This document shows positions 1,278 to 54,500 of a DNA stretch of 64,000 nucleotides, piece after piece. The first letter of the stretch is position 1. The number at the start of each line of letters is the position of its first letter. Origin of the DNA: a virus. The notes under the pieces were generated by a model. It saw only the letters and a list, made by a program, of their open reading frames with translations. It had not been told where the DNA came from and made no database searches. The translations under genes and the position numbers were made by a program. Where the stretch lies: positions 1 to 64,000 of IMG/VR virus record IMGVR_UViG_3300045988_128739; one strand, written 5' to 3'.

Positions 1278-2339
1278 ATGAACAATTCAATGGTCGCTCA
1301 CTTGTGGGCTCATGAACAAGAAGAATCAGCATCAGGGAACAATTTCTTCTTTGAAGGTACAAGTATTTATTCTTATGGGCATCACTTTGAAGTCGGGAGA
1401 ATAGTAAAAAACAAACAAGGGAAGAAAGCATACCTGATAAATGAAGATTATTATTCTGTTACCACGAGCAAACATCAATGCTATGTTCGTAATGCGATAC
1501 CAACTTGGGCAATGGTTTTCAGTGTAGGGGATAATATATCGGATACTGGTAATATGAGGTTTGTTGCCAGCAAACTGGAATCAATTAAGAAGTCTATTGA
1601 AAAATACAAAAGAGCTAAAACAGAATTATCTTATACAGATATTTGGGGCGCTTTTGGGAATATGATGGATTACATTCAGTTCTTTAACATGGGAACTGCT
1701 AAGAGTATCCTTAAAAAGAGTGCTAATGATTGGCTTGGAACCAATCATGAATTATCCAAGAGCGGAGATAGTATCAAGCGTAAGCACGTACATGAATTAA
1801 AACGCATCTTTCAAATTTTATTGGATCATCAAGGATTAAAAGTGTTAGGGACCGTAAATGTGATTGTTGATGAAGTTTGCGGGGAAGGTACATGGATTAA
1901 GTATTCAGAAAGATCTGAAAGATGGAGAAAGGGTGAGGAAGAAAGAGAAAGAATAAAATTAGAGAGATTAAGAAAGGAAGAAGAAGCCCGTTACAAGGAT
2001 TTTGATGAAAAACTGGAAGAGTGGAAGTCAGGAGAAATCAATTTCTTGAATACACCTTTCTATATTCCTGGTGAAAAACCTAACGCCTGGATTCGTATAA
2101 AAGGAAATATTATTGAGACAAGTAAACAGATAAAGATTGGAATAGCAGAAGCCAGAAAACTGTGGCGGGCTGTGTCGGCAATGCACCGGGGCGCCGAGTT
2201 TCGGCACGGTCTGGTGGAGGACGTCACCGGTCACCAGTGGAGTCTAAATCGGTACGAAAACGATTTGCTAACCGCTGGATGTCATAGGATAGCATATAAC
2301 GAAATGGAGAGAATAGCAAAACAACTGGGATGGGTGTAA
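1278..2339 (+). CDS. hypothetical protein with charged coiled-coil segment (353 aa)
   Basis: ORF with an ERSERWRKGEEERERIKLERLRKEEEARYKDFDEK stretch. Its C-terminal part is encoded by a GC-rich island (2152..2240). Confidence 0.5.
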   Translation: MNNSMVAHLWAHEQEESASGNNFFFEGTSIYSYGHHFEVGRIVKNKQGKKAYLINEDYYSVTTSKHQCYVRNAIPTWAMVFSVGDNISDTGNMRFVASKLESIKKSIEKYKRAKTELSYTDIWGAFGNMMDYIQFFNMGTAKSILKKSANDWLGTNHELSKSGDSIKRKHVHELKRIFQILLDHQGLKVLGTVNVIVDEVCGEGTWIKYSERSERWRKGEEERERIKLERLRKEEEARYKDFDEKLEEWKSGEINFLNTPFYIPGEKPNAWIRIKGNIIETSKQIKIGIAEARKLWRAVSAMHRGAEFRHGLVEDVTGHQWSLNRYENDLLTAGCHRIAYNEMERIAKQLGWV

Positions 2340-4925: not shown

Positions 4926-5780
4926 ATGAGCACAAGTAAAGAATACAAGGCAGTAAGGAACTACATACTAAATGAACTTCATCTTACCAAAGAAGATATA
5001 ATCAAAAACATAGAACCGTTATTGGAGAAACACGTAAAACGGTACATGGTTAATACATATGGAGGTGACAATCAGATAGAAAACTGGATCAGATGCATGG
5101 TGAATGATGAACTCAAACAAAGAGATCATGATTTTGTAAGAAGAGCGTGCGAGAATGTCATCAGGAATCATGTATTAAATGAATTGAATATAATCGTAAG
5201 ATCCAAAAGTGAGAAATGTACATGTGAAAACAGAGTACCATCCGAAGAGGATAAGAAAGAGTCAACTGATGGACTGTATATAATCTACAAAGACGGACAT
5301 GCAGAGCCGTTTACCGGCCATAACTCAAAAGATTGTGTACGATACATCGGGTTGAAGCACAGATACATGTCATTTGCAATCTCACTGACAGAGCATGATA
5401 TCGTACAATTGCTTGACGATGATAGCCGTGAAGAATCCGGAAGTGGGACATATTATGAACGTGAATGTGATGCGCTGTTTGACATTGACGGACGCGGCAA
5501 TACGGAACGCCTTGTAACCAGAAATCCAAAATTGAGAAATCTGCTGGAAGATGGCGAGTATATACCATCTCTTGGTCAATTAAATTTAATGGCCCATTAT
5601 ATGAACGAACTAAACAAAGCATTCGCTTATGTTTCGGCATCTCCCCTCTCCTCGACGTGGTATTGGTCCAGTACTGAGAGCAGCCAGGCCGTCGCGTGGT
5701 ACGTGGTCTTCTCCAGTGGCCTCACGGGCACCGGCAACAAGCACATCGGAGACATGGTTCGGGCGGTAATTGATTTTTAA
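4926..5780 (+). CDS. hypothetical protein (284 aa)
   Basis: ORF whose C-terminal 45 aa are encoded by a conspicuous GC-rich island (5636..5770). Confidence 0.45.
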   Translation: MSTSKEYKAVRNYILNELHLTKEDIIKNIEPLLEKHVKRYMVNTYGGDNQIENWIRCMVNDELKQRDHDFVRRACENVIRNHVLNELNIIVRSKSEKCTCENRVPSEEDKKESTDGLYIIYKDGHAEPFTGHNSKDCVRYIGLKHRYMSFAISLTEHDIVQLLDDDSREESGSGTYYERECDALFDIDGRGNTERLVTRNPKLRNLLEDGEYIPSLGQLNLMAHYMNELNKAFAYVSASPLSSTWYWSSTESSQAVAWYVVFSSGLTGTGNKHIGDMVRAVIDF

Positions 5781-12813: not shown

Positions 12814-14126
12814 AAGAGAAAATAAAAATATTGACAGATTTAGGATTTGTCCCTATGGTGGAAGGAGAAGGAAATACGTTGTTTAGAATGAACGATGTTG
12901 TGATGTCGGTGTCAGATCCTAACCAAACACCAGAGCAGTTGAAGAAGGAGGTTATGTCTTTAATAAAGAACAGAGACATAGCAGAAAGAGGCGGACAGGT
13001 TCCAGTAGTTGAAGAGCCGGCGCCTGAGACAGAGCAGGCCCAGAAGGAGGAACCGGAAGCTCCGGCGGAGGAAGCCGCTCCTAACCCTGGAGAAGAGGAT
13101 TCGAATCCGTTTACAGAAAATCAGGAAACGTTAGAACCGTTTTATATCTGTGATGAGTTAAAGAAGATTGAGACTCCCAAATTCGTAAGATTGACATTAG
13201 ACGACAATCGTTTTTATGTAAGGAAGATGGATGATGGGACAGCCAAGATATATGCTTCGGTAACAACCTTAATCAAAGACGGATATGTAGATGATAAGAC
13301 AGCACTTCAGGAATGGAAGCAAGAGATAAAGATGCTTGGTCGCAATCCAGAAGAGATAGCGCAGTATGAAGCCGATAAGGGAACGATCATGCACTACCTA
13401 TACGGATTGTACTTGACAGGTAGAGATATGGTCTTAAATCGAAATTTTATAGTTAAGACAGTGCAAGAAGGTAAGCTGAAGATATCGAAGAAAAATCTTG
13501 ACCGATTTTTTAACAGCATAGATGATCTTGACGATATGATTGTCAGGGTCATGAAGTTTGCCAAATTCTGTTCTGATTACAAGGTGAAACCGATGATGAT
13601 AGAAAGAATCCTTTCTTTAGAGGATTACCTTGTAGCAACACCTATTGATGCGATGGTTAAAATGACATTCAAATACAAAGAAGAAGGTTATTTTGGAGCC
13701 GTATATCAAAGGGTTACAGGGCAGTTCAAAAAAGGCGATCCGAAGAAGGAAGTAAGAGAAGTGGAGAAGGAAGAAGTGGTCATTCTTGACTTTAAATCGG
13801 GAGGTATATGGGAATCATACGCATTCCAATTAGAAGCTGAAAGAAGAATGGTTAAAGCATGGTACGGAATTGACGCGCGTATTATGAACTTTTCTCCAAA
13901 AAGCACGAGCAGTAAAGGATATACGCTGAAAGAATGGACAGAAGATAGTGTAGCACTTGAAAAGGCGGACTGTGTGTTCCAACAAGGGATGTTGAATCAC
14001 CTTAGAAAAGACAAGAGGTTCAAAGTGAGAAAAGGAGTGCTGAATATCAATAAGCCTTACAATGAAGAGGATCATATTGTTGTATATGATATTGCTGAGG
14101 AAATGTCTAAAAGATTCGTAATATGA
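12810..14126 (+). CDS. PD-(D/E)XK (RecB/Cas4/lambda-exo-like) nuclease with N-terminal Pro/Glu-rich linker (438 aa)
   Basis: VVILDFKSGG matches the hhhDYK(T/S)G motif III of RecB-family nucleases. An acidic residue lies upstream and QLEAERRM downstream. Confidence 0.5.
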   Translation: MKEKIKILTDLGFVPMVEGEGNTLFRMNDVVMSVSDPNQTPEQLKKEVMSLIKNRDIAERGGQVPVVEEPAPETEQAQKEEPEAPAEEAAPNPGEEDSNPFTENQETLEPFYICDELKKIETPKFVRLTLDDNRFYVRKMDDGTAKIYASVTTLIKDGYVDDKTALQEWKQEIKMLGRNPEEIAQYEADKGTIMHYLYGLYLTGRDMVLNRNFIVKTVQEGKLKISKKNLDRFFNSIDDLDDMIVRVMKFAKFCSDYKVKPMMIERILSLEDYLVATPIDAMVKMTFKYKEEGYFGAVYQRVTGQFKKGDPKKEVREVEKEEVVILDFKSGGIWESYAFQLEAERRMVKAWYGIDARIMNFSPKSTSSKGYTLKEWTEDSVALEKADCVFQQGMLNHLRKDKRFKVRKGVLNINKPYNEEDHIVVYDIAEEMSKRFVI

Positions 14127-14704: not shown

Positions 14705-15710
14705 TTTCAGAAGATACGAAAACGTACCTCGGTTTCAACTTGACCGCAGGCCCGGAAGGAGCCGACTGAAGCTAACCTGCCCGGCTTGCGGAAAAAGCCG
14801 GTGCCTCACTCCTTATATTGATGTGGCAACAGGTCAGGTTGTTGGCAACGAGTTCGGAAGATGCGATCATGAACGGACTTGCGGTTACGATAAACGACCT
14901 ACTGGTAAGGATGTAGGTGACAAAGATCTTTGGATTTCAGGAAACAAGTGTATAAGAGCTTATCGCCCTCCTGTAAATCCTGACGTTGTAAATTACATAC
15001 CTTTTAGCGAGTTTGAGAGGACTGTGGTTCCAGACGATAGAAACACTGTATTTAGATTTTTATCGTCTCTATGGGGAAAAGAAAGGGTGTCTGATGTATT
15101 CAGGAGGTATCATGTAGGAACAATGGACTTATGGGGATGGAAAGGATGTTGTATATTCTGGCAGATAGACAAAGATTTTGTATGTAGAACCGGCAAGATC
15201 ATGGACTTTTATATAAAAACCGACGGCCAGGGGAATGAGATTGATGTAAAAAGAGTGAAGGAAAAAGACGGTGACAATGAGCGGCCTCATGTTATGTTTT
15301 ATCACTCGTTGCATGCAAGAGACTTCTTGTTTAGACAATGCCTGTTCGGAGAGCATCTTCTAAGCCAGTATCCGGATAAGGTGGTTAATTTGGTGGAATC
15401 AGAAAAGACGGCTATTATATGCGCTGTGAATAAACCGGATGAGTTATTTGTAGCTACCGGTGGGTTGCAGAATCTAAGACCGGAAGTGATAGATGTTTTA
15501 AAAGATAGAAAGACCGTAGCTTTTCCGGACAAAGGACAAGCATTTGAGACATGGAGTAAAAAGATAGATGGGATGATGATGAAGTCAAGGATAAAAGTAT
15601 CGGACTATCTTCAAAATGTTGAAAATGTAGGAGACGGAGATGATGTGGCAGATTTGATAATCAATAACAAGGTAAAAGAAAAATATCATGAGCCTGGATG
15701 TTTATATTAA
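14697..15710 (+). CDS. putative DNA primase-like protein (zinc ribbon + TOPRIM-like region), 337 aa
   Basis: N-terminal CPACG...C...CDHERTCG zinc-binding region. VESEKTAII...VAFPDKG resembles the TOPRIM E / D(x)D layout but has only one Asp. The gene lies directly upstream of the DnaB-like helicase. Confidence 0.4.
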   Translation: MLDFRRYENVPRFQLDRRPGRSRLKLTCPACGKSRCLTPYIDVATGQVVGNEFGRCDHERTCGYDKRPTGKDVGDKDLWISGNKCIRAYRPPVNPDVVNYIPFSEFERTVVPDDRNTVFRFLSSLWGKERVSDVFRRYHVGTMDLWGWKGCCIFWQIDKDFVCRTGKIMDFYIKTDGQGNEIDVKRVKEKDGDNERPHVMFYHSLHARDFLFRQCLFGEHLLSQYPDKVVNLVESEKTAIICAVNKPDELFVATGGLQNLRPEVIDVLKDRKTVAFPDKGQAFETWSKKIDGMMMKSRIKVSDYLQNVENVGDGDDVADLIINNKVKEKYHEPGCLY

Positions 15711-17161: not shown

Positions 17162-18263
17162 GATAGATATAAGAAGAATATTCAAGACCTCTAAACAGGT
17201 TATGGAAGAGGCGTATGAGAATATCTTAAAATACAGGCGGGGAGAGCTTATCCCCGCTAAAACCGGATACGATTATATTGACGAGGCTTTGCTTGGAGGT
17301 ATTTTTCCTCAGCATGCTATTGCTATAGGGGCCCGGCCATCTGTAGGTAAATCGTATGTGGCCCAAAAGATATTGGGAAATGTTATGAATCCGATGATCA
17401 ACCCGCAAGCAGAAGATTATTTTCTTGTTAATTGCGAGTTCGAAATGAATCCTCAAGATCTTCTTCTTCGCAAAATGAGCCAGGATATGAAAAAGCGAGC
17501 TCCTGAAATATTAAGAAGGCAAGATTCTAATACAGTAGAAGAGATGAGGATGTTTGAAATCCTTCAAGGTGAAATCAGAAATAATATAATATACATCGAT
17601 GCTCCGTGTACGGTAAAAGAGTTTGAGGCGGCTGTGTATCATATAGCTACCAAACATAAAGACAAACGTCTTATAATATTTAAAGTCGATCATATTGCTT
17701 TGATAAAAAGAATGGGATTAGATCCTAAGTCGGCTATAGATGATTTGGTGGCGGTTATGAACGAAGCTAAATTAGTATATAAAAACATATTTTTCCTCAT
17801 CATATCCCAATTCAACAGAGAAATAGAAGGAAGGATAAAAAGCCCACAAGAGCAGCCTCCGCGTCTTTCTGATTTTTACCAATCCGATACGCTGGGTCAG
17901 TTATGTACGTTAATGATAGGTTTGCACAATCCTCGTAGGTACGGGCTGGATAAGTATATGATATTTGGGAAAGACTGGTATCAGACCCTTGATAGGTTTA
18001 AAACTGAAAACAAAACATCATTCAGGACAGCCGGACTGGTATTTCATCATATACTGAAGGTAAGGCAAGTTAGTATGGAAGAGCTTACTAATACAATCCA
18101 CCCAGAGATACTGCCGGGACATGAATGGATGTACGGGGAGGGCGGGACGAAGTTCGTGAACCCCAACCAGCCGCCGACGCCTCCCAAGCTCTATACCGTG
18201 GAAGACGTTACGGACAATCAGGAACAAGAACAAGAGACAAAAGAAGAACAGTCATTGTATTAA
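17130..18263 (+). CDS. DnaB-family replicative DNA helicase (RecA-fold C-terminal domain), 377 aa
   Basis: Walker A IGARPSVGKSYVA, Walker B IIFKVDHIALI, and H4 motif ISQFNREIEGR. The C-terminal tail is a GC-rich island. Confidence 0.8.
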   Translation: MTKMHEEIANRIDIRRIFKTSKQVMEEAYENILKYRRGELIPAKTGYDYIDEALLGGIFPQHAIAIGARPSVGKSYVAQKILGNVMNPMINPQAEDYFLVNCEFEMNPQDLLLRKMSQDMKKRAPEILRRQDSNTVEEMRMFEILQGEIRNNIIYIDAPCTVKEFEAAVYHIATKHKDKRLIIFKVDHIALIKRMGLDPKSAIDDLVAVMNEAKLVYKNIFFLIISQFNREIEGRIKSPQEQPPRLSDFYQSDTLGQLCTLMIGLHNPRRYGLDKYMIFGKDWYQTLDRFKTENKTSFRTAGLVFHHILKVRQVSMEELTNTIHPEILPGHEWMYGEGGTKFVNPNQPPTPPKLYTVEDVTDNQEQEQETKEEQSLY

Positions 18264-23151: not shown

Positions 23152-24167
23152 TGGTCCCAGAAACACATTTGCTATATAAGGAGTTTAATGGTGTGAAACG
23201 TCTTGCCATATCTTATTCCCAGATAGATACGTTTCTTGCCTGTCCAATGAAATGGTATAAGACTTACGTAGAGGGCAAAAGGTCTACGGAAAAACAAGAA
23301 GCTACGTCTTATGGTACGGTTATCCATAAGACACTGGAATACTTCTTTAAGAACGGAAGACAGCCTTCCGGTAAAGACCTTGGAGAAGCAATAAGTTATT
23401 ATTCCTATCAAGAAGACATACCTTGGCAATCACCGGAAAATATGATGATAGCCATGAAACAATCTGGAGAGCTTCTTGCTTGGATTGTGGATCTGTTTAA
23501 AAAAGACGGGAATAGGTTTATGATAGCTGATAGTGATCTTAATCCCTGTGAGAAACTTATCAGACACGGCGCCATAGTTGGAGTCGAAGAAGATTTCGTG
23601 CTGCCATACCGTCTTCCTAAGCCTGTTGATATAAATGGTGACGTTCATACTCATGTGTACATAGTAGGATCGGTAGACCTTCATCTGGCTATAAAGAGCA
23701 AGAACGTAGTTCACCATTATGTCATAGATTGGAAATCAGGTAATAAGGTTTTTGATTCTAAGAAGTTGGAAACGAATTTACAGCATCCTATATATTCGTT
23801 TTACATCTATAGAAAATATGGTGGAGTTCTGCCAGATATGAACATCTATTTCTTTACCAGGACCAGACAATACCAAAAGGTTAAAGTTGATGAGGAACGT
23901 AAAACAAAATCTATAGAAATGCTAAATGACACTTTATCCAAAATGTATGATTTTGAAGATAATAGTGTAAAAACATTTCAAGCGTACATCCAGGGGGCAG
24001 AAGGAGCCAGGTATAGCAAGCGGCGCGCCACCCTAAGCCAGCCTGTTCCGCAAAACAAGCTGCCCTGCCCGTCAGCACTGTGTTATTATTGTGACTTTGG
24101 ATTACATAACAAAAACGAATGCCCTTTCTCTTCGGATTGGGATCCGTCTAAAAAGATAAAACGATGA
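23148..24167 (+). CDS. Cas4/RecB-like PD-(D/E)XK exonuclease with Cys cluster (339 aa)
   Basis: Motif III YVIDWKSGN. An N-terminal Cys (LACPMKWY) plus a C-terminal CPSALCYYC...C give the Cx(n)C-x2-C arrangement of Cas4/AddB-type Fe-S nucleases. Confidence 0.6.
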   Translation: MMVPETHLLYKEFNGVKRLAISYSQIDTFLACPMKWYKTYVEGKRSTEKQEATSYGTVIHKTLEYFFKNGRQPSGKDLGEAISYYSYQEDIPWQSPENMMIAMKQSGELLAWIVDLFKKDGNRFMIADSDLNPCEKLIRHGAIVGVEEDFVLPYRLPKPVDINGDVHTHVYIVGSVDLHLAIKSKNVVHHYVIDWKSGNKVFDSKKLETNLQHPIYSFYIYRKYGGVLPDMNIYFFTRTRQYQKVKVDEERKTKSIEMLNDTLSKMYDFEDNSVKTFQAYIQGAEGARYSKRRATLSQPVPQNKLPCPSALCYYCDFGLHNKNECPFSSDWDPSKKIKR

Positions 24168-25050: not shown

Positions 25051-26461
25051 ACTTAGACCTTACCAAAAAGAAGCAGTAGATGCCGGGCTTAAGTTTCTTA
25101 CAGGAAGATCTAAGAAGCCTGGCATAATCGTAGCCCCATGCGGATGTGGAAAGAGCCTTCTGATATCCAAGATAGCACATGAAATAAATAGACCGACATT
25201 AGTATTACAGCCCTCAAAAGAGATTCTGGAGCAGAATTATGCAAAGGCCGTATCATTCGGTTCTAAACCTACTATATATTCTGCTTCATGTGGTATAAAG
25301 GAGCTGTCGGCTATGACTTATGCTACACTTAAAAGCATAAAGAAAGACGTAGCAAGGTTGAAAGATATAGGGATAGATACCTTATTGATAGACGAATGCC
25401 ACTCGGGGTATTCCCCGGAGGAAGGTTCTGAATTTATGGAGTTTATGAACGGGTTCCCAGAGGCGAAGGTGCTGGGCTTCACCGCCACTCCCTGCCGCCT
25501 CCGAACCTACAGTTCCATGCTGGAAGGAAACTATAGCAAGCTCAATATGCTGACGAAAGACGAACATAACTTCTTCAAGAAAATAGTTCATGTGACTCAA
25601 ATACAAGAACTAACTTCTCAAGGGTTTTGGTGTCCACTTAAGTACGAACGATGGTCGTTTGATGAATCGGCTCTGATGCTAAACAGTACCGGAGCCGAAT
25701 ACACCAACGAATCTATTAAAGAAAGTATTGTACGAAACGGCTTAAACAACTCTATCTACAAGCGCCTTCTTCAACTTATGAACGAGCGTAAAGCTATTTT
25801 GGTTTGCATGGATTCTATCGAATCATGTAATAGAATATCAGAGTTCATGAATGCCAGGATGGGAGCCATAACCGGTGTCGTAACATCGCTAACAACCAAA
25901 AAGAAAAGAGAGCAAATCATATCCGATTTCAAAGAAGGTAAGTTGAAGGTGGTTTTTAATTATTCAACGCTTGCTACCGGATTTGATTTTCCTGAACTTG
26001 ATTGTGTGATGTTCGGTAGACCAACTTTCTCATATTCAACGTATTACCAAATATTAGGCCGCGCCGTCCGCATCCATCCTGACAAGAAAGAGGCGCTGAT
26101 AGTTGATTGCTGTGACAACATGAGGCGTTTCGGTCGGATAGAAGACCTGACAATCGAACAATTCCCTTCTAAGGGCTGGTGTATGTTTGCCGGCGATCAA
26201 CTTCTGTCTAATATAAGGATGGGTGATATTATTACCAAAGACGAGATCCTTCGTCGGGCAGCCTTGCTTAAATCTGTGAATGGAGATGGTAGGAGAGAAG
26301 ACGATCTTGACAGTATAATAATGTGGTTTGGAAAATATGAAGGAATTAGATTCAAGGACATACCGGTGTCGTATTTTAGGTTCTTGGCTGAGAATATGGC
26401 AGTAAAACCAGGAGATAGAAAAGAAAAGGTTATAGAATATTATAATAGGATAAAAGCATGA
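25040..26461 (+). CDS. SF2 DExH-box helicase (ResIII/DEAD-like), 473 aa
   Basis: Motif I APCGCGKS, motif II LLIDECHSG, motif III FTATPCR, motif V TGFDFPE, and motif VI QILGRAVRIH. Confidence 0.8.
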   Translation: MGFELRPYQKEAVDAGLKFLTGRSKKPGIIVAPCGCGKSLLISKIAHEINRPTLVLQPSKEILEQNYAKAVSFGSKPTIYSASCGIKELSAMTYATLKSIKKDVARLKDIGIDTLLIDECHSGYSPEEGSEFMEFMNGFPEAKVLGFTATPCRLRTYSSMLEGNYSKLNMLTKDEHNFFKKIVHVTQIQELTSQGFWCPLKYERWSFDESALMLNSTGAEYTNESIKESIVRNGLNNSIYKRLLQLMNERKAILVCMDSIESCNRISEFMNARMGAITGVVTSLTTKKKREQIISDFKEGKLKVVFNYSTLATGFDFPELDCVMFGRPTFSYSTYYQILGRAVRIHPDKKEALIVDCCDNMRRFGRIEDLTIEQFPSKGWCMFAGDQLLSNIRMGDIITKDEILRRAALLKSVNGDGRREDDLDSIIMWFGKYEGIRFKDIPVSYFRFLAENMAVKPGDRKEKVIEYYNRIKA

Positions 26462-30019: not shown

Positions 30020-30766
30020 TTGAATCTAATGAATAAAATGAATAATTTTAATAACATTAACTACGCAGCAAAAGCCAGAAGAGCTTATTTGATAAACAAT
30101 TTCGATAAGATTCTTAACAGCCTCAACACGCTTCATTCGACGGTTGAAACCATGACGTTGTTCGTAAACGACCAGGCTTATAATTACATTCTTAAGCTGA
30201 AGGAAGTGATTAAGGGTGGTCCTATGTACAAACATAATGTCAAACGATTTTTGAATGATATGGACAAAGAGATAAAGAGGTACAATGCTTCTATCTACTA
30301 CATAAATAAAGAGCGTAGTGAGGTTATAGCTGATATAACACAAGCGATGGAAGATTGCCTCATGCCATACATAGACGACCTGGCCGGCGCTATAAGGGCA
30401 GCCGTGTGGTCGAGGGGTGTGTCCGAGGAGCGGACGGAAGCGGCGGTACTGTCCCTAATCGTATCCTCCTTGGCTACGACATCAGGCAGACTTATCTCAG
30501 ATGGATATCAGATCATGAAAGAAATGGGTGGAGGCTGGGGTGGTAATCCATTTACGTTTATGAGCATTGATAAGATAAGACACTTATCTACATCATTGTC
30601 TGATGCTATTACCGGTGGAGAAATAGCTCTTGAAGAAAAAGAAGCCAATAACATAACTAAGGCAATGGATGTTTTTATTGAGAAAATGTCTGATTCGGAT
30701 ATTGTCGATAAGGTAATTAGCATACTCGAAGAATCAGAATCTAAAAATAAGGAGGAGCGATCATGA
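30020..30766 (+). CDS. hypothetical protein (248 aa)
   Basis: ORF containing a GC-rich island (30375..30475). Confidence 0.45.
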   Translation: MNLMNKMNNFNNINYAAKARRAYLINNFDKILNSLNTLHSTVETMTLFVNDQAYNYILKLKEVIKGGPMYKHNVKRFLNDMDKEIKRYNASIYYINKERSEVIADITQAMEDCLMPYIDDLAGAIRAAVWSRGVSEERTEAAVLSLIVSSLATTSGRLISDGYQIMKEMGGGWGGNPFTFMSIDKIRHLSTSLSDAITGGEIALEEKEANNITKAMDVFIEKMSDSDIVDKVISILEESESKNKEERS

Positions 30767-31902: not shown

Positions 31903-34900
31903 CTATTTGTAACTAACATCATCGTCCCCTTCCGAATCAGGAGTAGCGCCGATGAAGAACATCATTGACTTGTTGTTCGTCTGCTGCCACCAATTATAGG
32001 CGCGCGCTACGTCTTCCGGCGTCTTGATATTATACCATTGTTTGATAAACGTCTGTTTGGCGAGTTGCCTAAATAACTTAGACTCTCCCTTGTATGTACC
32101 GGATGTTACTTTATCAAGTGAATAATTCCTAAGATCGGTAAGATCCTTCAGTTTTCGCCCCATAACAAACGGATCGTTAATGATATCTACCACGTTAAGC
32201 TCCATAATAAACGGCATCTGTGAAGCTATTTCGTTTATAGTTCTGAATCCGACATAGGATCCAAATTGAGTAAGCCAACTTTCTTCGTTTTCATCATCAT
32301 CACGCCATCCGGCAAGAAGCATAGATACGGCTTGCATGATAAGAAACGTGCCGGCATAGACACTGAGGCGTTTGAGATTGGTTTTTTCTACTTCACTCAT
32401 CTTATCTTTATTTTCGTTCCAGGCATCTATGATGTTTTTCATACCAGACTCGGAAGCCAGGCTAAATGTTTTGGCTATCATATTCTTTAACGTAATTGAC
32501 AACCCTTCCTCTTCTTGCATTGCTTGGAAATTGAAGCCACGTCTTTTCCACAGGCGTTGAGCCGCCAGCACCAACCATCCTCGGTGGGCGGTCATGAACC
32601 TGGCTATCCAGTTGCGCGATGCGGCAGTTCGGTTTTCTTCATTCAAAGATCCGTTACATATCTGCGACAAGCTACGAACTTGATTTCTGGTTATAGCCAT
32701 CTGGGTTTCAACTTCCTCAACAGTAACACCCGATCCGGGCTTTACAACCACCTTCCCATCCACGACATCTACCATACTCCATAAAGTACGATCTTTTAAT
32801 GCATTCCATTCTCTTTTTATGGTACTCTGTTCTTTATTGCGTTCTTTTTCCATCTTGAAATCTTGGAACGTGTAGAACCGACCTTTGTAATAACGAACAT
32901 TGTCCATAGTAGCAATCATAACCTGCGGATCAAGAGGGTAGTTCAGGATTTCCATAAAAGCATACATAGGTGAACGCATTAAGGTCCTGGCCACTCTATT
33001 ATATCCGGCACCATACATACGATTTCGGATATTGAATATCCCCATTCTCTCACCTATGACATATAATTTGCTTTTTCTATCTATGTCTCCGGTTTCTGCT
33101 ATACAAGATGGCGCAAGACGGGAAAACTCAGCCGATGCGTATTTAAGGGAATCTTTGCTTATATACTGTCCTACGGCTGATTCCATGATGAGGTTGATAT
33201 GACCGGTAAGGGCGCCGGTAGCTGCCACAAACGGGGACAGTGCCAAGTTCATGACCGACATAAATCTTTCAACGGCCATCATTATCCTGGTAAGGTCTAC
33301 TGTGTATCCACCGATGTTTACCGTCAGTTTTTTGGTGTTCATCCTAATGCCATAATAATGGTCATTGAAGAAGTCCCTGAACATCTGATATGCTTGGGTT
33401 GCTTCAGCTTTCTTCCCGCCTTCAAATTGCTTATTCAGCAACATCTGCTCCAGTCCTTGGGCAAGCTCTATAGATTTCTGCTTTTCGTTGTATAACGATG
33501 ACTGCATCATAAGCATCGAATAAGAGTAGCCAAAATCGTGAGATACATCATCTTGGTTTTCCAATTCATATATGTAGTATTTAGGTATAGACCTAAGTCT
33601 GTCTTCCGGATCATACACTTCTCCTTGCCTGGTTTTACCGTATAGAGAATCGTCTACTCTGTCCAGGCACAGATCTGATACAAAATTACGAACTGTATTT
33701 TTGAAGTTAATACCCAATCCTTCTATACGTTCTATATCTTGTTTTGATATCTGTGGAATAGCATACAGGTTCGGGCTCTGCTCTTTGTATAGATCAAGGG
33801 ATTGTCTTTTTATTTCCTTGAGTTTTTGAATCATATTCCACTGCTCTACGTTTTTAGTAGCAACCTCATTACCGTCAGCATCATACTTGATACCAAAGTC
33901 ATTGAAATACGATTCGTCACGATACAGGCTTTTCTTAGGCATTCGATGACCATACCCATGATCTTTTACATAATCAGGATTACGGCCGCTATTTTCGGCT
34001 TCAGATTCAGCCACCCATGCCCTTGCAGGATCGAAAGACAGGTACGATATGTCCATGCCATAATCTTGGGTGGATGTACCATTTTGTACGTCCTTAACCA
34101 TCTGCGCCACATCTATCTCACCTCGGCCAATTTTGTCGATCATAGCCGCATATCCGGTAGGCGCCATGCGTTTATAGTACGAAAAGACCTGGCTCCTGGC
34201 AAATTCATTAACAATAGCATTGGCCTCTTCTATGCCCTCCTCTCTTGTATTATTTAAAAATAAGCTGGCCATCTTAGCATTAACAGCATTCCTAAAATCT
34301 CTACCGTCTAATTCTTTGCTTATACCAAGCTTTTCTGACAGGTAGTTGGTTTCAGATACGGTAAACAGATATCGGTTATCAGCAGCCTTAAACAGCTTAT
34401 CCCTTAAAGCCTGAATCCTTTTTGCTTTCTTCGCCGTAGTATGACGTTGTACGAACTTCCATTCCACTTCCTTGGAGTCAGCAAGAGCATTTAAATAAGA
34501 CTGATTTACTTCGTTTTCAGCCTTACTGCTTTTAGTAAGGTACTTATCAATATCTTCAAGACCCACCATCTTAGCATAATCTATCAAAATAGCGTAATCG
34601 GCTTCAATAGCTTCAGATGCGGCCCTAAAAGCATCTCTTTCGGATGAGGTAAATGTCGCTTCGTTAATTTCTCCGATATCAGCCACATCGCGATTGTTTC
34701 CGATTATTTCCTTGATAATGGCCTTATTTTTTTCTATATCTTTTACAATCGAGTCCACGTCAGTCGCATCTCTATCACTTGTCGTAGAACTAATGATATC
34801 ATGCGCCATTTTGAGATACGAAGCCTTGTTATTTGATTTGGTACGTGCCGACTGTTCCGATTCTACATCATTCCAAAACCGATCATTAAATGACAGGTGA

Positions 34901-37900
34901 CCTCCCAACATAAGTGTCTTCAGCGCAGCTTCTCCTCCCGACTCGTTCTGAATCGTTCTCAATTTTTGCAAAAACGATTCTGATACGGCATTAGTAACAT
35001 TATTTGATTCCTTTCTCCAAACTTCATTTATAGCTTGTATTTCTTTGGCCATCTTAAGTTGGTCGCCGGTTTTTTCCACTCTCCTGGTTCCTACATATAT
35101 GTATTCTGAAGCTGCTTCCTTACGTTGTTTACGAAGCAGTCCTTCTTCTTCGTAATTGCTGCTTTTAAAATAGGCAACTTCATCAAAATTACCACCGCTA
35201 TCAATAAAAGGCTGCCTCAATATCCGTTTTTGCCTGGATAGAGCATTAAGGTATTCTTTGGTTGTTTGAGAAACCGGATGCCCTAATTCTTCTTCAGCCT
35301 TTTTGTATATGGATTCCATTCTTGTGGCATAACTTTCGCTAAATTCCAGTTCCGAATTTTCAGCATCCCACTTTTCCATCTGTTCCGTATAGATCTTTTC
35401 CTGCTCGATGGTAAAAATATCGGTATTAACCCTATCAGACGATGGCTTAAATTTAGCGTTTTCAGTAACCGTATTTCCATCCTTGTCAATTACTTCTCTT
35501 TTAAATACGTAATTACGGTTATTGTCAACCACATCACCAATTTCTTCTTCTGATATCTCTATGTTCATGGCAGTCGCAAACGCTCGCATCTGCGCCAGCT
35601 TCTTATTACGATCGTATTTAGCCATATCAAGAGCACTACGAAGGTAATTAGAAGTTTTGCCGTCTACTTTCTGAAGCAGTTTTTCAAATTCAGATTTGTT
35701 AAAACCATGCTTTTTAGCATATGCCAGGAAGTCGGATATGGCGGGCTGGGCATTCACCATCGCATTGTAATTGTCTTTGGCAATCATAGCTCCAAGAGCG
35801 TTATTGAACGGACTGGAAGAATGCTCTAATATACCAAACCACCTACTTATCCAAGAAACATCGTGTTGAACCTTGTCGAAAAATTCTTTTACTCTCTTTA
35901 CCTTATCTGCCGGCACATGAAGTTCGTTCATTAACTTATCAAGCAACGTACTTTCATCAAGGTCTTGTACTGATTTAATATCAGACTGAATACCATTGAT
36001 GTCGGCAATGACGGTATTGATTCTATTTGTATAATCCTGCTTTTCACGTTCATCAAATTCGGTACTTCTGTTACGGATATATCCTCGAAGATCGTTCATG
36101 ATCGGAAGAACCTGATTGTTGATAATATCTACGTTCTTTCGATCATTGGTATTGAAGTGAAGCTTACCGTCTTTGGTATCACCATGAAGGATGGTGTTCA
36201 CCACATTGCTTAAGTATCTGACCTGAGCTTCGGCTGTGGAGATCATGCTGTTCATGGCAGCCGCCATCTCATTCTTGTCTATCTCGGTCTCTACTTTATT
36301 TATCTTATCTTCTATGGTCTTAAGCTGAGCAAGGGTCATAGACGTAGTTACAGCCCTATCAGAGCTTATCTGACGTAAGTCTCTTAATGTTTTTCTTAGC
36401 GATCTGATCTTAGACTCAAGAAACTTGTTCTTGTTCATAGAAGAAAGGGAGTATAATGTAAAGTCATTATCCTTTAACAGAGAAGTGTCAAATCCTTTAT
36501 CTATGTCAGTAATGGCAAGATCACGAATGTTTTTAATAACGTTATTCAAATCTTGTCTTTGGGTTGATAAAGCTGATTTAAGCCAGCTTACTATTCCAGA
36601 GAAAAGCCGCCGGACGCGCCCCAGGAAGGAGGTGGGCTCTACCGGCGCCTGTGCTGTGCCGGTCTGCATCTCCCTGGCGAGGATCTTTCCAAGAATTTCT
36701 CTCCTAACAGCATTATCAAGCTCAGCTCCTTCATATACCTTACCGTATGTATTATAATACTGACCTGCATACTGGTTCCACTCTTCCGTACCTTCCACAT
36801 CTTGCAGAACAGCCTCAACAGCATTCTGATCTCTGTATGCCTCTACAAGGAAGTGGGCTGTTTCTTCTACTAAATCAGATAAAGTAGCATCTTCACCAAC
36901 TGCTATTACGTTATTAGCAATATCCGCCAATGCCTTAGCAGAAGGTTCGTGCCCGTATTTGGCTTGGTACTTCTCTATATAGTCGGTCATACCTATGACA
37001 CTAACGCCAAGCGTTTTCAGTATCTCGACAATAGAATTTCGTTGGTCACGTTCCTGCCTGCTATAATCTGATACGATCTTAGCTTTAGTATCAGCATAAA
37101 GATCGTTATCTTCTAATATGAATGAAACTACAAGCGCATCAAAATGATCGTACTTGGCGTCCAATTCATTGTATCTTCCTGACTTAAGATCGTTCTTTAT
37201 CTGTTCCCTACTAACCCTTTCCGTTCCTCCGGTGGCGAGTCTCATAGTTACCTTACTGTTATCCAACGAGCTTATGGTTATCATACCTTGGTCGTTCATG
37301 GAAACATCGGAACCAAAATGATTACGGAGCTCGGTGTATGATAAGGCTGAATTGAAAAGTCTAATTTGTCCTGTATAACCTTCTCCTGTAAGATAATAGC
37401 TTCTTGTTTCAGAATCGAATATCTTAGATCCTGACAAAAGACCTTTCTTTATAAGGTAGTTAATTATCCCGCCTTTTGTTGATAAAGAAGTAGAAGCAGA
37501 AGCGGTCATGACCGGTATAAAAGACTTGGGATTATTAAGAACATACTTTCCAGCTTTGTAAGTAATGTCTGCCACGCCATCCACGGTAGATTCTTGAACG
37601 GTTCCTGATAAGAATCCTATTCTAATATCATTCCCGCCAGAGCGAAGAGCTTCTCCGTAATCTTCAAATAATTGACTACGATCGTTCATGAAAAACAAAC
37701 GAGGCTCTCCAGTCTGATACGTTACACCCACAGGATTAGAATCTGTTTCTGGTAGCTCTTCTGGGCTAAATATCTTAAGACCGTCTTTTATAACCATATA
37801 ATTAACACCCTTATCCTGTACCACAGATACGGGAGTGAAGTCCGAAGATATAGCATCTTGTAAATACTGCCCGGCGTCTATTCCTGGTTCTTCCGGTACG

Positions 37901-44842: not shown

Positions 44843-47800
44843 TCCTTATTTAACTCATTTATCGAATCCGAATTATCAGAACCTTCTACGAGATTCTTAT
44901 TCCTGTCTATCTCTTCCTGGCTCATATTACTCATCATATTTTGTATTTTTCTACCAGATTGAGATAAAGAGCGGATGAATGCACTGGAACTTATCTTAAC
45001 TCCAAGATTCGGTTTTGCCCTAAACGCTTCACCGGTACTGATATTATACAAATCATACACACCTGAGTTCATATAGAATTTATATATCCAGTTTCCACCA
45101 GCTTTTTTGTACCCTAATTTGGTTAGCTCGACTACACTCATACCAAATTTAATACCATTACGACCCATTATCTTCTCCGGTATAGGTTCTACTTTAGCCG
45201 GAACAGATGTATATGCTTCGTCACCGCCGTACAGGAAATAAGGGGTTGTTACCCTTGATATGTGAGTAAGCGGTTCTTCGGATATACGAGGTTCGTCTTT
45301 CTCGGCCTTAGATTCTTTCCTTGGATTGGATATTCTAATAAAAGGATCGTATGTTAAAAAGGTTAAGCCGTATTCTACTTTATAACCTGATACGCCGTTA
45401 AGGTCCCTTATAGCCTTAGTCGTATGCGAGTGATTGATGGTGTCTATACCATACCTTGATTCCATATCGGTCATAATACTATTAACCTCATCTCCCTCTA
45501 CATAAACCTCTTCTCCTTCCGGGATAGAGGTTATGCCGGCAGCCCTTCTAAGTAGCCATAAAGTAACTTCAGCAATGTCAGAGAACTTATCTCCGTTCTT
45601 CCTATAGTTATCTACTCTTCCTTCTTCAGATCCAGGTAATTCGACATTTCCTTCAACTTCGACATTTGTTCTGGATTGTCCTTTGCCTTCTCCATCTCCC
45701 TTTTTATCGCCATCTTCCTCAGTGCGTACTGCACCGCCTTCTGCACTTCCTTCTTTTCCATCATTTAAAATATTATCTGATTCTGATTCTATAGACTCCA
45801 CGACAGCATCATACTCTGGTATGCCGCTAAGGAAATCTGCTACGTTATTCAAAAACTCTATTTTTTCCTCGTTTGTCATATCAAGGCTTTCCACGGGCTC
45901 CCATATGGCAGGCAAGTTGTTTGATTTTATTGCAGTAGAAACATCTTCTACAGTTTTATTATCCACCGTAGGCAAAACTTTAGAAACCAAACTATTGATA
46001 TCAGATTCCATTTTTTCTACTTCCTCTTTTGTGCCATATTCTTTTAGGGTATCCATGCCATTGACTCTAAGAGAATAATTCAAAGCCTTGCTTGGAACAA
46101 AATTAATATATTTCAAAAAGTTTTTCAACTCTGATATAATTTGTTCGTCAGATCTTGGCCCAACATAATCAACCACCACCTGATCTGTTTGAGAACGAAG
46201 CCAAGAAACGTATTCTTCTAAGGTCTTACCACCTTTACTGGAAGGAGTGGATATTTTATCACCTACTGTTCCTTTAGGTTCTAATCCCATTTCTTCCTTA
46301 AGGCTTTTAGGATTACCTCTCTCACGAAGAAACCTCAAATCACCTCCTACAATCTTCCTTGCTATAAAATCAAAAATATTAGCATAAGACGGCAATCCTT
46401 CTTTTTCTATATGAGATTCTATTTCGTTTAACATAAGAGAGAAGTTTTTCCTGGAGGTACGCTTCTTGCCAGGTAAAGACTGCGCGGCTTGTGCCGCAGG
46501 AGCCGGCTGAGCTAATGGCGCCGGCTGAGTCCCCAGGATAGTCCCTTCCTCTGGCATTTCCTCTTCATAAACATCCACGTCTTCTTTAGAAGTAACGGTC
46601 TTACCCTCATCAGAGAAAGGAAGATCATCCTCTATAAGTGATTTAGGTCTGGAAGATGATTTACCAAACTGAATCCTGATCTTAGGAGCAACAAACATCT
46701 CACCTTCGAAATCTATTCCAGATTCTACTTCAGACGTCACAATGTCTTTCACACTCCTACTTCCATCTTCTACCCACTTAACAACATCAGGAACTGTAGA
46801 TAATTCTTCTATAGCCTCACGAGCTTTTCTAAGACCTGAAATAGGATTCAAATACGATACTTGATACGAAGCCGGATCAAGACCTAACTTGGTTAGATAC
46901 GCATTAAGATCTTGTATATCATCTTGACCCATCTGTAGCAATTCAGAATCACCGGATTCAAGCAGCATATCTATAAAAGACATCCATTTCCGCCCTTCCT
47001 CTGATTCCACAGAACGTAGGCTAACTGGGAAAAGATAATTAAGACCGTTTTTACCTTTGATGACAACTACCGGAACTCTTACATTTTTGTAATTATTCCC
47101 CTTGTCATTTAATATAGAATAAGCAAATGGGAAGCCTGTGTATTTAGATCCGTTCTTAAGCACGACTTTGCCATTTAATACATATCCGACATCAGATACT
47201 TTTTCAGCACCTTTTTCGGTAATAGGGAGATTTTCTACCTGGCCATATCCTTGACCGTTCACCTTCATGTTAAACACCGGTCTTCCGGGAAGGGTCTGGG
47301 CAACAACATGCGTGCCGACGCCGATGGTAGCCGACCGGCCGGCGTCCTTCTTCCACTTGTTAAAAGCCGTTCTTCTTATCTTACTTATACCATCTATGCC
47401 TCCTGTGTCAGCTTTTACAACAGAAACGAATCTGTTTCCACTCATGACCTTGATAACCATATTGGACACCAGTTTATTCTCAGCAGATTCTATTCTTTTT
47501 TTATCGCCGGACTGAACAGCATCATTGTATTCGGCAAAAAGAGACTGATTATAGGTATCATTTACATCTATTTCGAGATTAACCTTATCTCCTTTTTTCA
47601 AAGAAGATAATGCTTCCTGATCTATTTTATCTACCTCATTATCTCCGAATCCGACACCCGTTCTGTACGGAACCAACTCATCTGAATCAAGACGCTTATA
47701 AACCAAAGAATAGGAATTACCCACGTCCTGAATAGACACATCTGTGTAGCGATTAAGAACACGAGCCGATTCTTTGTCTATAGACCATCTCGCATGATAA

Positions 47801-51555: not shown

Positions 51556-54500
51556 TTATTCCCTATTTACGCTATTCAACAACTTCATCAACTTGCCATT
51601 TTTATTCAAAGACGTAGGTAAATTACCTCCTTCTTTTGCCGCCACCATATCCTTAATCTCTTCTGTTATGGCTGCCACAACAAAATCAACTATTTTTTTC
51701 TGAGGCGCAACAGCAAGTTCTTTAGACACATTATCCGCAAACCATACATTAGGAGTATCAAACGAATCTATTAACTCAGGTTTACCATTCTCCATAAGAT
51801 AAAGCCTTGTCTCATATCCATAACCGTAACTTGTCTTAGGATCATAACCTTCAACCTTTACACCAAGCTTTCCACTGTTATCCAATATATCTTTAGCTGC
51901 ATTAAGAAGCCAAACCTTTTGTTCTGGCATATCATCTAAATTATTACCAGATTCATTTATCATATCTGATAACACTTTCATCATTGAAGATACAGAAGCA
52001 TAAGCGGGTGATATATCTGAATTTTCAAGCATCTTCGGATACCACATATTAGTATCACTTCCAAATGTAGGTCTTATAATACCACTTTCATATCCACCTA
52101 TATCGACAGAAGGAGTATTAACACCAGGATCTATACCATTGTTTATCAACTCTGTTTCAGACACCTCAACAATATCCATCTCTCCTCTTTCACCGGTATG
52201 ATTAGCGACCAAACTGTAAGTCTTCTCTCCATTGTCGGCTATTCCCGATTCTGTCAAAGAAAATGATTCAATGGTTGCCGATGATGATTTAGATTTACCA
52301 ACAGGATGCTCTGCCATTTTCTTAGTAAATAGATCCCTGAGAACCCCCATCTCTCTATAACCAGCCTCCTTGGAGGTTAATTTGGTTGAATACGTTACTG
52401 TATTAGGTGAATACAGTTCGAGATATTCTTTACGTATCTCTTTTATACCATCATCCTGAACCTTAGTTATTTGATCAGCCATATTAATATCACTTACCGC
52501 ATAGGTTCCAGCACCTTCCATTCCACAAATAGAGTACAGTGCATTAAAAAACACATTTTCTTCACCATCCGAGAAACTATTTTTTACATCATCGTATTTT
52601 TTTAAGAAATACCTGCCACTTTCGCTATCCCACTCAAATACTTTAGATAAATCAATGCCATCATTTTTCACCCTCTTTCTTATAGTAACCATATCAGCAG
52701 ATGAGAATCCTTTTTCATAATATCTTACTCCAGCTTCTACATCGCCAACTACACCTCTATTTTTTCTTAAAATATCATTAAGGGATAACGCTGTAGCATA
52801 GGCTATATATCCTTCGGGCTTACCTCCTTCCTTCTGCGCGATCGCATTTGCTATTTCAGATACAATATTATCATAAATCCTGTTCTCCTTCTTAATTCTA
52901 TCATTCTCTATATCCATCTTGTCTACAGCACTATTAAGCTGCATATAAGCGTCTGTAGCAGCTTTTCTCTCTGCCATAGGTAGCTTATCAAACATATCAT
53001 TAGAAAGACCTCCATTGTCCTTTATGTACTTAAGAAGTTTTTCTTCATCCATAAGATACTTGTATCCTGATGTTTCATCTGTCATATTTCTTGATATAGC
53101 AGCTTGAATATTTTTCATGTTCTCGGCACCAAGAGCTGTAGATAACCGACTTCCAGATGTAACAAGATCGGTATATGCTTTATTAAACTTCTTATGGGTC
53201 TCTCCTGATATGTTAATATTTTTCGTCTCGATAGGATTAGCCGAAATAGTTCCACCTAAGTTCGTGCCGACGCCCACCTGCATGGCACGGCTCCCTGCTC
53301 TACCGCCTGCCGCCCCTGCACCAGAGGACATAAGTTTTGCTATTCTGGCTTCATTAAGCCTATTCTGCATCTTCAGACGTTCTTCGTCTAATCCAAATCC
53401 GGCTTCATCCTTATTCTTACCATATTCAAACTCTGCAATACCCCTATTTCTTTCATATTCAAATTCTATCTTCCATTTTTCGAAATTCAAATTAGCTAAT
53501 CTTTCCCTCTGATTATATTCTTTGGTTTTCCAGTAAAGCTCGTCGGCTTTGATTATGAAAGACGAATTATCATAAGCATATGAAGCAGCAGCATTATTAA
53601 TAAAATTATTTTCAATAACCTTCATCGCTCCAAGATACGGATCGTAAGCCCTTTCATCCATTCTGCTAAATTCAGATTTCATGGAAGCTATTTCAGATTT
53701 GGCTCTCTTTATTTCATTTTCAACCATTTCTTTCTTTGCAGGATCAGAACCCAAACCGGAAAGATCGGCAGTAAGAGCATCAACATACCTCTGCTTATCA
53801 CTTATCTGCTTATTCATAAAACCAAGAACAGAATCATACGAATATAAAGAGGGATTAGAGTCTACCATGTAAATAGCCTCCACCTGCATCTGCTGCCTTG
53901 CTTTATCTGATAACCCTGACAATGCAAAAGAAGCTATCTGTTCAGGAGTAAGCATATCCTTAGTTACTTCTTGTACTGCCCCGGTAGGATGACCATCCTT
54001 GTCAAGAATAGGAATCTGAACTTTAGCTCCTTTATGAAGCTTGCTTATAAAATCTATCCTATCTTTTAATTCCTTATTATAATCAGTATAAGGAGTATAT
54101 TGAAGAGGAGCAAGACGGGAACCAGCCTTTCCATCATTCACCCATTCATTATACGGCTTTAAAGCCGCATAAGCATTCGCAGCAGAATAAAGTTCTGGAT
54201 TATTTATTTGTAAATCAGATAGCATTTTATGCATTCTCCTGCCTTCTTTTGTGCCGGCAATCGCGTTAATAACCGTATCATCCAACACCGAACTGATCTC
54301 TCCTTGTATGGCTCTCGTAACACCATCAGAAGAAAGATCCACGCCTTTGAATTTTTGATTGATGTTAGCAATCACACCTGACATCTTATCTTCCATATAA
54401 GCACGGGCTTCAGGCTTATCTATCTCTTGACCCATAAGATAATCTACCTGGGTATAGATCTTTTCACGAGCAGCATCAACCTTCTGCTGTTTGTACATCA

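Follow-up and report, generated by a model that had tools for sequence, protein, structure and literature searches.

Short GC-rich islands in the genes of a relative of the crAss-like phage csAssE-Sib: a diversity-generating retroelement variable region and candidate sites of GC-biased fixation

The first 64,000 nucleotides of the IMG/VR virus record IMGVR_UViG_3300045988_128739 (hereinafter the window) constitute an AT-rich phage segment of 37.7% GC, in which short GC-rich islands with G/C-ending codons, roughly one per 4 kb, interrupt otherwise AT-rich genes without disturbing their reading frames. Sequence comparisons show one of these, the flagged island at 5635–5766, as the variable region (VR) of a diversity-generating retroelement (DGR), lying at the C-terminus of an Lcl_C-type lectin-like domain. 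The other ~13 coding islands display a bias in allele frequencies that favors G/C. With somewhat less than even confidence, we favor a joint reading in which the flagged island is a DGR VR while the others stem from GC-biased gene conversion, or from a fixation bias of like effect, at sites prone to recombination, a mechanism that we infer for these ~13 islands.

The window carries its replication/early module on the plus strand (1–31.7 kb) and its structural module on the minus strand (31.9–64 kb). It shares 92–97% DNA identity with csAssE-Sib (OR575929.1), an epsilon crAss-like phage of the human gut placed in the proposed genus Epsilonunovirus (PMC11054128). Searches with five anchor proteins recovered between ~190 and ~600 close relatives per protein from IMG/VR. 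For population analyses, ~80 IMG/VR genomes per region were aligned across the entire window. Related contigs are labeled with L-numbers (csAssE-Sib being L001); L140, L142/143, L145, L146, L471 and L555–L559 were recovered via their helicase and DnaB proteins, and the intermediate lineages are represented by 6–21-kb contigs covering the replication module only. All gene models are ORF-based.

The islands stand out by several measures. In sliding 80-bp windows, GC peaks reach 0.60–0.725 against a mean of 0.377 (sd 0.071; binomial sd 0.054), and a maximal-scoring segmentation yields 17 segments, of which 15 are compact (40–132 bp, 64–74% GC) and two are longer and diffuse. All but one of the compact segments (the exception being intergenic, 59048–59087), along with one diffuse segment, lie in frame within long ORFs. 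GC is elevated at all three codon positions, with the fraction of G/C at third positions (GC3) being 0.54–0.89 as compared to 0.354 genome-wide. The island-encoded residues are enriched in R, A, G and P and depleted in K, N, E and Y, such that the GC content expected from the residues alone is 0.45–0.64; thus, amino-acid composition contributes to the islands, yet it is not sufficient to explain them. To separate the two effects, protein sequences were held fixed and codons were redrawn from genome-wide usage: 15 segments scoring at least 13 were observed against a mean of 1.62 (maximum 4) in the resampled genomes, and eight scoring at least 17 against 0.13. Within the islands, 290 third positions are G/C as compared to 149.5 expected (z=15; 2.2–6.1 per island), though the z of 15 is inflated by the prior selection of the islands, the unbiased test being the whole-genome resampling.

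An earlier note on the window, made from its sequence alone, had described such islands and held that the observation hinged on the GC3 excess outlasting a control for amino-acid composition. It outlasts the amino-acid-preserving resampling, and hence the observation stands. Eleven of the 14 islands listed in that note correspond to strong segments (those beginning at 2152, 5636, 14737, 18118, 23995, 25436, 30375, 36595, 47285, 53263 and 55020). The three shorter ones (10781–10815, 16440–16475 and 62785–62825; 35–41 bp) fall below the segmentation threshold, two of the three having ~61–63% GC by hand count. Conversely, 12990–13090, 32548–32632, 46450–46555, 59468–59552 and the intergenic 59048–59087 are additions to the earlier list. 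The placement of some islands over key motifs, namely the neighborhood of the Cys cluster of a Cas4-like nuclease and the tail of DnaB, was also borne out. The proposed tendency toward gene 3′ ends holds for seven of 15 window islands, which lie at 0.82–0.93 of gene length, but it is weak genome-wide, with no clear bias.

The phenomenon extends beyond the window. A separate ORF-based scan (score of at least 12) recovers 13 islands in the window against 1.1 expected and 24 coding islands in csAssE-Sib against 2.8 expected. The complete csAssE-Sib genome has 35 islands across all of its 151 kb, the centers of which have a mean spacing of 4.3 kb with a coefficient of variation (CV) of 0.59–0.63 as compared to 0.96 for random placement (p<0.001). 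Two of 26 csAssE-Sib islands in the ORF-based scan fall outside called ORFs; this approximates the small non-coding fraction of the genome, which argues that the underlying process does not need coding sequence.

The flagged island and its retroelement

In DGRs, reverse transcription of a template repeat (TR) is error-prone at adenines, and the resulting copy takes the place of the VR in a target gene. The earlier note did not consider this possibility for the flagged island, which spans residues 237–281 of the 284-residue product of the plus-strand gene at 4926..5780, encoding its last 45 residues with the scaffold WYWSSTE..AW..F..G....K....VR.V. This gene carries a DUF3988-domain annotation in csAssE-Sib and has an Lcl_C/DUF1566-type lectin-like C-terminal end. 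The Pfam Lcl_C model (PF07603) matches residues 242–281 with E=2.3e-4, a weak score below the curated cut-off, and the target protein of contig L474, which shares this C-terminus, scores above that cut-off. BLASTP aligns the last 52 residues at 58% identity.

Three lines of evidence from allelic variation and the template point to a DGR. First, among 80 relatives, the strain alleles of L200, L211/212, L216 and L196/209 differ by 10–30 substitutions, all of which fall within the island, while the flanks are ~96–100% identical. These substitutions occur at NNC/NNT codons only and define codon sets such as AGC/TAC/AAC, GCC/GGC/AAC/GTC and CAC/TAC/TGC, which are explained by adenine mutagenesis of AAC codons yielding such products. 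The ratio of nucleotide diversity at codon positions 1 and 2 to that at position 3 (pi12/pi3) is 1.15 within the VR as against 0.32 in the flanks. Second, a TR predicted from the strain alleles by placing AAY at the variable codons matched three loci in IMG/VR, in L472, L473 and L474. Read gene by gene, L474 displays an Lcl_C target with its VR, followed by a 162-aa ORF, a 128-nt TR and an RVT_1 reverse transcriptase; L472 and L473 have the same 128-nt repeat pair ~731–734 bp apart. Third, aligned over 120 nt to the L474 TR, the window VR (5648..5767, plus strand) has 20 of its 25 mismatches at TR adenines (A fraction 0.33; p=1.4e-6). For comparison, all 11 mismatches of the L474 VR and 10 of 11 in the L473 cassette are at TR adenines, and the variant strain alleles range from 13/16 to 18/21. 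The conversion of the AAC codons of the TR to NNC in the VR explains why codons here end in C and accounts for some of the GC excess, the TR core being ~52% GC by base counts and the VR 62%.

The cassette comprises the Lcl_C target, an ORF of 154–162 aa, the 128-nt TR and a 496-aa reverse transcriptase, and occupies positions 8103–13498 of L473 and 1–3494 of L474, being present also in L472. The TR of L474 sits within the 5′ part of a long ORF (2004–3494) bearing the reverse-transcriptase domain. L473 also holds window-type segments (5522–5767 at 90% and 8486–8784 at 94%), indicating that, within this phage group, certain strains possess both the cassette and the window-type gene end.

Several observations weigh against this assignment. 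Neither a cognate TR-like copy nor a matching reverse transcriptase was found in the window, in the complete csAssE-Sib genome or within ±10 kb in 80 relatives. Most of the 80 relatives share a single VR allele, which is that of the window, and this allele has five non-adenine differences from the L474 TR. Moreover, at its 3′ end, the VR/TR homology of L474 runs through GGTTCGGGCGGTGGCAGCAT, whereas the window shares only GGTTCGGGCGGT, diverging at GGTTCGGGCGGT|AATTG; if the homing signal is located at that end, it may be incomplete in the window. As related contigs possess the TR and reverse transcriptase that the window and csAssE-Sib lack, the flagged island is a remote or orphaned VR.

The paper on csAssE-Sib describes one DGR cassette with a different target, the receptor-binding protein (PMC11054128). 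Its annotated VR (45751–45846) and TR (46215–46310) belong to another TR family, and that template, being unrelated, matches no window island and was rejected as their source. Hence, the locus described here is a second DGR target family for Epsilonunovirus phages, with an accessory cassette in some strains only; the TR family and target are unreported for these phages, and the VR is of a known DGR kind. The lectin-like DUF3988 protein is thereby likely to bind a ligand and to be under diversification. Directly downstream of its gene, at window position 5802/5804, csAssE-Sib has an extra small-gene insertion of 334 bp (L001 8285–8619), whose 73-aa ORF has no Pfam match.

Population genetics, turnover and origin of the remaining islands

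The polymorphism of the other islands is of a different type. Their spectrum is ordinary and transition-dominated rather than adenine-specific; accordingly, DGR-like adenine mutagenesis was rejected for them. Across the ~80 genomes, third-position diversity in the islands resembles that in the flanks, implying that no particular nucleotides are conserved. What differs is the direction of the variation. With islands defined on the population consensus, thereby avoiding ascertainment on the window, third positions whose major allele is G/C (S) show an A/T (W) minor allele in 37% of cases in islands against 50% elsewhere (p=3e-4), while those with a W major allele show an S minor allele in 46% against 28% (p=7.5e-4). 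The frequency of W minor alleles is 0.13 in islands as compared to 0.20 elsewhere (p=9e-5). Rare S-to-W variants are about equally frequent per site (0.18 in islands, 0.16 elsewhere), and common ones are about half as frequent in islands; thus, G/C-to-A/T variants arise but fail to spread. The islands therefore exhibit a G/C-favoring fixation or frequency bias beyond mutation input. At the protein level, the islands of the primase and DnaB vary at synonymous sites, with a pi12/pi3 of 0.02–0.04 (0.02 for the primase).

The islands are also associated with recombination junctions. As an indirect proxy for these, we used the ends of tracts that are identical over 500 bp or more and border on divergent sequence. 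There are 64 such ends within islands against 30–34 expected from length or SNP density (p~1e-6) and 101 against 58 expected within ±40 bp of islands, the excess falling with padding. It also holds for mid-gene islands and is seen at individual islands, with 13 ends against 4.6 expected at 12990..13090 and 12 against 4.7 at 46450..46555.

Comparisons with other lineages reveal that the islands turn over. Most lineages outside the species (L557, L559, L145, L142 and L146) have homologous residues in the same alignment columns encoded by AT-type codons. For example, the DnaB tail peptide IHPEI(L/M)PG..WMYGEGGTKFVNPNQPP is nearly identical in L557, the DnaB of which is 81% identical at the amino-acid level, but its GC3 there is 0.43 as compared to 0.80 in the window, and a peptide near-identical to that of the primase Zn-ribbon island has a GC3 of 0.33 in L557, L559 and L142. 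L140, L471 and L555, with ~65% protein identity, have two island positions in common with the window, namely helicase motif III and the linker of the PD-(D/E)XK nuclease. The former is retained in all three with a GC3 of 0.68–0.79 using other synonymous codons, being absent in L559, L558, L145, L142 and L146. The latter occupies the same position in L471/L555 (GC3 0.72–0.85) despite a diverged peptide and is absent in L557, L559, L145 and L142. Alleles of the island at 2164 are still 62–70% GC at only 69–84% identity. Since divergent alleles and lineages stay GC-rich with changed codons, it is the GC content that persists rather than the sequence, even as positions turn over. Whereas L556, of the same species, retains the islands, none were detected in the 21 kb available for L557, in L142, L143, L145 and L146, or in 100 kb of crAss001. 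L558 and L555 have one island each in the lineage scan. L559, at 34% GC, has five islands against 0.02 expected, all at positions other than those of the window: in the replication factor, a DUF3268 protein, the N-terminus of the PD-(D/E)XK protein, the C-terminus of the helicase and a methyltransferase motif. Island density is nonetheless alike, at ~2 per 10 kb, in two lineages with differing positions.

On these observations, the islands can be put down neither to chance or amino-acid composition, nor to insertions or repeats, nor to specific RNAs or decaying foreign patches. In particular, all-against-all BLAST of the 16 window islands, and of the 35 in csAssE-Sib, returned no matches between islands, ruling out copies of one element, and insertions or mobile mini-elements are rejected as relatives hold homologous residues in the same columns. 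What they call for is a local force that continuously favors G/C and recodes ordinary homologous coding stretches. This push is ongoing in the species, has affected all three codon positions along with some amino acids, and shifts its location between lineages. Most likely, it takes the form of GC-biased gene conversion, or of another fixation bias toward G/C, at spots prone to recombination that would themselves turn over in evolution. With amino acids altered and an island of the window lying between genes, the force acts on DNA and not on codons alone. GC-biased gene conversion is ranked first because it covers the frequency skew, the recombination junctions, the involvement of all codon positions and the turnover.

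A number of points count against GC-biased gene conversion. It leaves both the placement and the even spacing of the islands unexplained: no k-mer of 5–8 nt, as might be expected of a shared Chi-like, methylase or nickase site, exceeds shuffles, and the spacing seen in csAssE-Sib is more readily squared with a functional requirement than with a by-product. The mechanism would further require the mismatch repair of the host to be GC-biased. The enrichment of tract ends is modest, at ~2-fold, and short conversion-like patches occur everywhere without being concentrated in islands (7/79 loci against ~4.6 expected). The polymorphism analysis takes minor alleles as derived by their frequency, without an outgroup, and selection on GC content predicts the same pattern. 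A more expansive version, which we regard as possible though doubtful, envisions a genome-wide landscape of roughly evenly spaced recombination hot spots, where GC-biased conversion or selection for a GC ‘clamp’ would recode ~80-bp stretches of essential genes, even at the cost of their amino acids, and shift between sister lineages.

The main rival, to which we assign a rather low probability, is selection for GC content itself, with short stable DNA or RNA stretches being needed at roughly regular intervals. Any GC-rich sequence would serve, whether as duplex ‘clamps’ for replication, packaging or topology, or as generic RNA stabilizers. The spacing in csAssE-Sib, more even than random, speaks for such selection, as do the similar density in two lineages despite different positions, the GC richness kept by divergent alleles and lineages and the skew of polymorphism toward G/C. 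Absolute folding energies are likewise strong (−20 to −40 kcal/mol), owing simply to composition, and a generic stability arising from GC content is possible. Yet, L557, with its closely related DnaB, lacks islands in its available 21 kb and crAss001 has none, such that any function of this kind would be dispensable. There is no structure beyond that of shuffles, no shared motif and no known candidate reader protein, and the recombination enrichment would be a mere side effect. The earlier proposal of factor-binding sites fares similarly: as the islands share no k-mer, only a factor reading composition is still possible.

Translational pausing, wherein clusters of genome-rare codons slow ribosomes for co-translational folding or assembly, appears improbable. 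G/C-ending codons are indeed a genome-wide minority (GC3 0.35), and the primase and DnaB islands do vary at synonymous sites only. However, codon positions 1 and 2 and the amino-acid content are also shifted toward GC, the window island at 59048–59087 is intergenic and csAssE-Sib has its two islands outside called ORFs. Further, the islands do not keep their place relative to protein domains from one lineage to another, and genome-wide there is no clear bias toward gene ends.

Slightly less probable still is the import of short patches from higher-GC relatives that are now decaying, a form of the mosaic recombination suggested in the earlier note. The population is highly mosaic, with many changes of identity blocks and short patches, and relatives span 34–46% GC. 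Against this, gene-wide GC3 in the relatives seen reaches at most ~0.58 as compared to the 0.8–0.9 attained in islands, and no matching donor was found. Identity to csAssE-Sib is equal inside and outside the islands (94.6% and 94.0%, respectively), and the islands do not generally coincide with breaks in the alignment to csAssE-Sib, arguing against their being mosaic breakpoints. In alignments judged by eye, the identity of the island peptides to relatives resembles that of the whole gene. Finally, G/C alleles are favored rather than decaying, and islands persist where synonymous sites have diverged. Thus, of the recombination proposal, the association with junctions survives, but not import from GC-rich donors.

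Structured RNAs or protein-binding motifs overprinted on the coding sequence are largely refuted and highly improbable: GC-rich spots in AT-rich genomes are often RNA genes and the island at 14744 folds somewhat better than its shuffles (z=−1.75), but fold z-scores against dinucleotide shuffles range from there to +2.1 over 16 islands with a mean close to zero (~+0.3), the Rfam matches in the window (a HEARO RNA and a tRNA) both lie outside islands, the islands share neither overall similarity nor a k-mer, and their synonymous sites are as polymorphic as the flanks, leaving the previously suggested selection for specific RNA structure unsupported.

If the islands mark hot spots of biased conversion, one of the most abundant phage groups of the human gut, with hundreds of sequenced strains, would offer a natural system in which to follow the effects of recombination on the base composition and protein sequences of viruses. 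No such landscape of hot spots and biased conversion would have been described in a virus before, and it would be readable directly from metagenomic population data. Local codon usage in phage genes could then be driven by a non-adaptive force, which bears on codon-based host prediction and the inference of gene origins. If they are instead functional GC ‘clamps’, they would point to a requirement of genome mechanics that is new for these phages.

Island positions and neighboring features

The island set is mixed: apart from the DGR VR, it includes an intergenic hairpin, several P/E/A-rich linkers in which amino acids do much of the work, and strongly recoded conserved segments. In the plus-strand half, the island at 2164..2240 (70% GC, GC3 0.80) encodes residues 296–321 of a 353-aa protein. 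Directly downstream of this gene, csAssE-Sib has an extra small-gene insertion of ~650 bp (L001 3389–4046 as against window 2371–2457). The island at 12990..13090 (65% GC, GC3 0.55) encodes a P/E/A-rich linker of a replication factor and is mostly amino-acid-driven, whereas that at 14744..14812 (67% GC, GC3 0.68) covers the N-terminal Zn-ribbon of the primase. The DnaB C-terminal tail is encoded by 18098..18185 (65% GC, GC3 0.80), and 23990..24076 (66% GC) directly precedes the Cys cluster of the PD-(D/E)XK (Cas4-like) exonuclease. The island at 25450..25503 (72% GC, GC3 0.88) encodes motif III (KVLGFTATPCRLR) of an SF2 helicase, and 30376..30455 (70% GC, GC3 0.77) is located mid-gene in the gene for a 248-aa protein.

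On the minus strand, a 2140-aa structural protein has two islands, 32548..32632 (65% GC, GC3 0.71) and 36606..36682 (74% GC, GC3 0.88). A 2238-aa structural protein likewise has two, 46450..46555 (64% GC), encoding a P/A/Q-rich linker, and 47277..47347 (70% GC, GC3 0.70). The island at 53263..53327 (74% GC) corresponds to a G/A-rich stretch of a 1007-aa structural protein in a region with no alignment to csAssE-Sib. That at 55018..55100 (GC3 0.70) lies in the gene for a 952-aa structural protein, with diffuse GC enrichment continuing to ~55368, and 59468..59552 (65% GC) encodes a P/E/A-rich linker near the C-terminus of an 819-aa (tail lysozyme-like) protein. The P/E/A/Q-rich linkers at 12990–13090 and 46450–46555 evolve fast at the protein level, their pi12/pi3 being 0.92 and 1.07, respectively, as compared to 0.25 in the flanks.

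The intergenic island at 59048..59087 (72% GC; no strand assigned) is a hairpin, GACGGGC...GCCCGTC, which lacks a T-run and was therefore rejected as a canonical intrinsic terminator. It is housed in an unusually long gap (58511–59255, ~745 bp) between two minus-strand structural genes. This gap, which contains no canonical terminator, is kept in csAssE-Sib with 98% identity over 58928–59207 and may hold an unannotated RNA.

The SF2 helicase gene (25040–26461) is an intein-free allele (APCGCGKS; P-loop at ~25133–25156), while most of the near-identical helicases listed, at 817 aa, have their Walker A loop occupied by a 344-aa Hint/homing-endonuclease intein. That insertion site is ~300 bp from the helicase island, and a link of the island to the P-loop intein was rejected. 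Distant homologues have inteins at no fewer than four other sites (motif II, ~residue 130, motif III, ~residue 312 and motif VI), those at motifs II and III being near the helicase island. DnaB (17130–18263) shows an apparent 139-nt overlap with the next ORF (18125–18880), annotated likewise in csAssE-Sib. This is probably an artefact of the DnaB GC island being free of stops in the alternative frame. In relatives, the downstream gene encodes 200 aa and begins only past the end of DnaB, which would correspond to a start near 18278.

A full-length HEARO RNA (RF02033, an IscB-type omega RNA; 95 bits, model positions 1–211) is found at 22440–22684 on the plus strand, in a 360-bp intergenic segment (22442–22802) that is absent from csAssE-Sib and present in ~11–14 of 80 relatives. 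No IscB/HNH ORF adjoins it, and for the 16 nt upstream of it, a putative guide, the window offers no further target; hence, guide targeting of an island was rejected. A degraded TnpB is split into two ORFs, an OrfB_IS605 N-terminal part (28928–29599) and a Cas12f1-like TNB domain (29719–30012), within a segment (28873–30034) that does not align to csAssE-Sib, which has a cytosine-5 methyltransferase nearby instead. A minus-strand tRNA gene (63939–64000) is cut by the window end, csAssE-Sib having tRNA-Tyr and tRNA-Lys there.

Comparison with known systems

The flagged island finds ready counterparts in the DGR VRs of C-type-lectin-fold targets, such as Mtd of Bordetella phage BPP-1, TvpA of Treponema and the receptor-binding protein of csAssE-Sib (PMC11054128). 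Like these, it occupies the 3′ end of a lectin-like domain and varies at template AAC/AAT codons with adenine-specific mismatches, and related genomes have the target, accessory ORF, TR and reverse transcriptase in the canonical arrangement. Unlike them, the window and csAssE-Sib are without the cognate TR and reverse transcriptase, and most strains have one frozen allele. The comparison covers this one island only.

For the other islands, our search of the literature turned up no phage in which short, unique, coding GC islands bearing such a population signature had been described, and, to our knowledge, GC-biased gene conversion islands of this sort are undescribed for phage genomes. Clusters of rare codons with conserved positions, reportedly described by Clarke and Clark in 2008 and by Chaney et al. 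in 2017, resemble the islands in being local runs of genome-uncommon codons, some of which are near gene termini. They differ in that the islands also shift amino acids and non-coding DNA, and their positions are not conserved among homologues. Rickettsia palindromic elements and comparable in-frame mini-insertions are, as with the islands, short, compositionally odd and compatible with open reading frames; however, the islands are not insertions and form no repeat family.

The nearest analogues are the GC clusters of yeast mitochondria and the hot spots of GC-biased conversion in eukaryotes, neither of which fits as a family. The yeast mitochondrial clusters are repeated, palindromic, mobile and mostly intergenic insertions tied to recombination hot spots. 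In common with these, the islands are short GC-rich elements that are scattered over an AT-rich genome and linked to recombination; in contrast to them, they are unique in sequence, non-palindromic and homologous parts of the coding sequence. GC-biased gene conversion at recombination hot spots is known from mammals, birds and yeast, and is said to have been proposed for bacteria by Lassalle et al. in 2015. The islands depart from the eukaryotic hot spots in being only 50–130 bp long, in a virus and more evenly spaced than random, with a putative biased repair and no hot-spot determinant found. Nevertheless, they parallel them in the rise of GC at all codon positions, including replacements toward amino acids with G/C-rich codons, in the skew of allele frequencies toward G/C, in the association with recombination and in the turnover of their positions.

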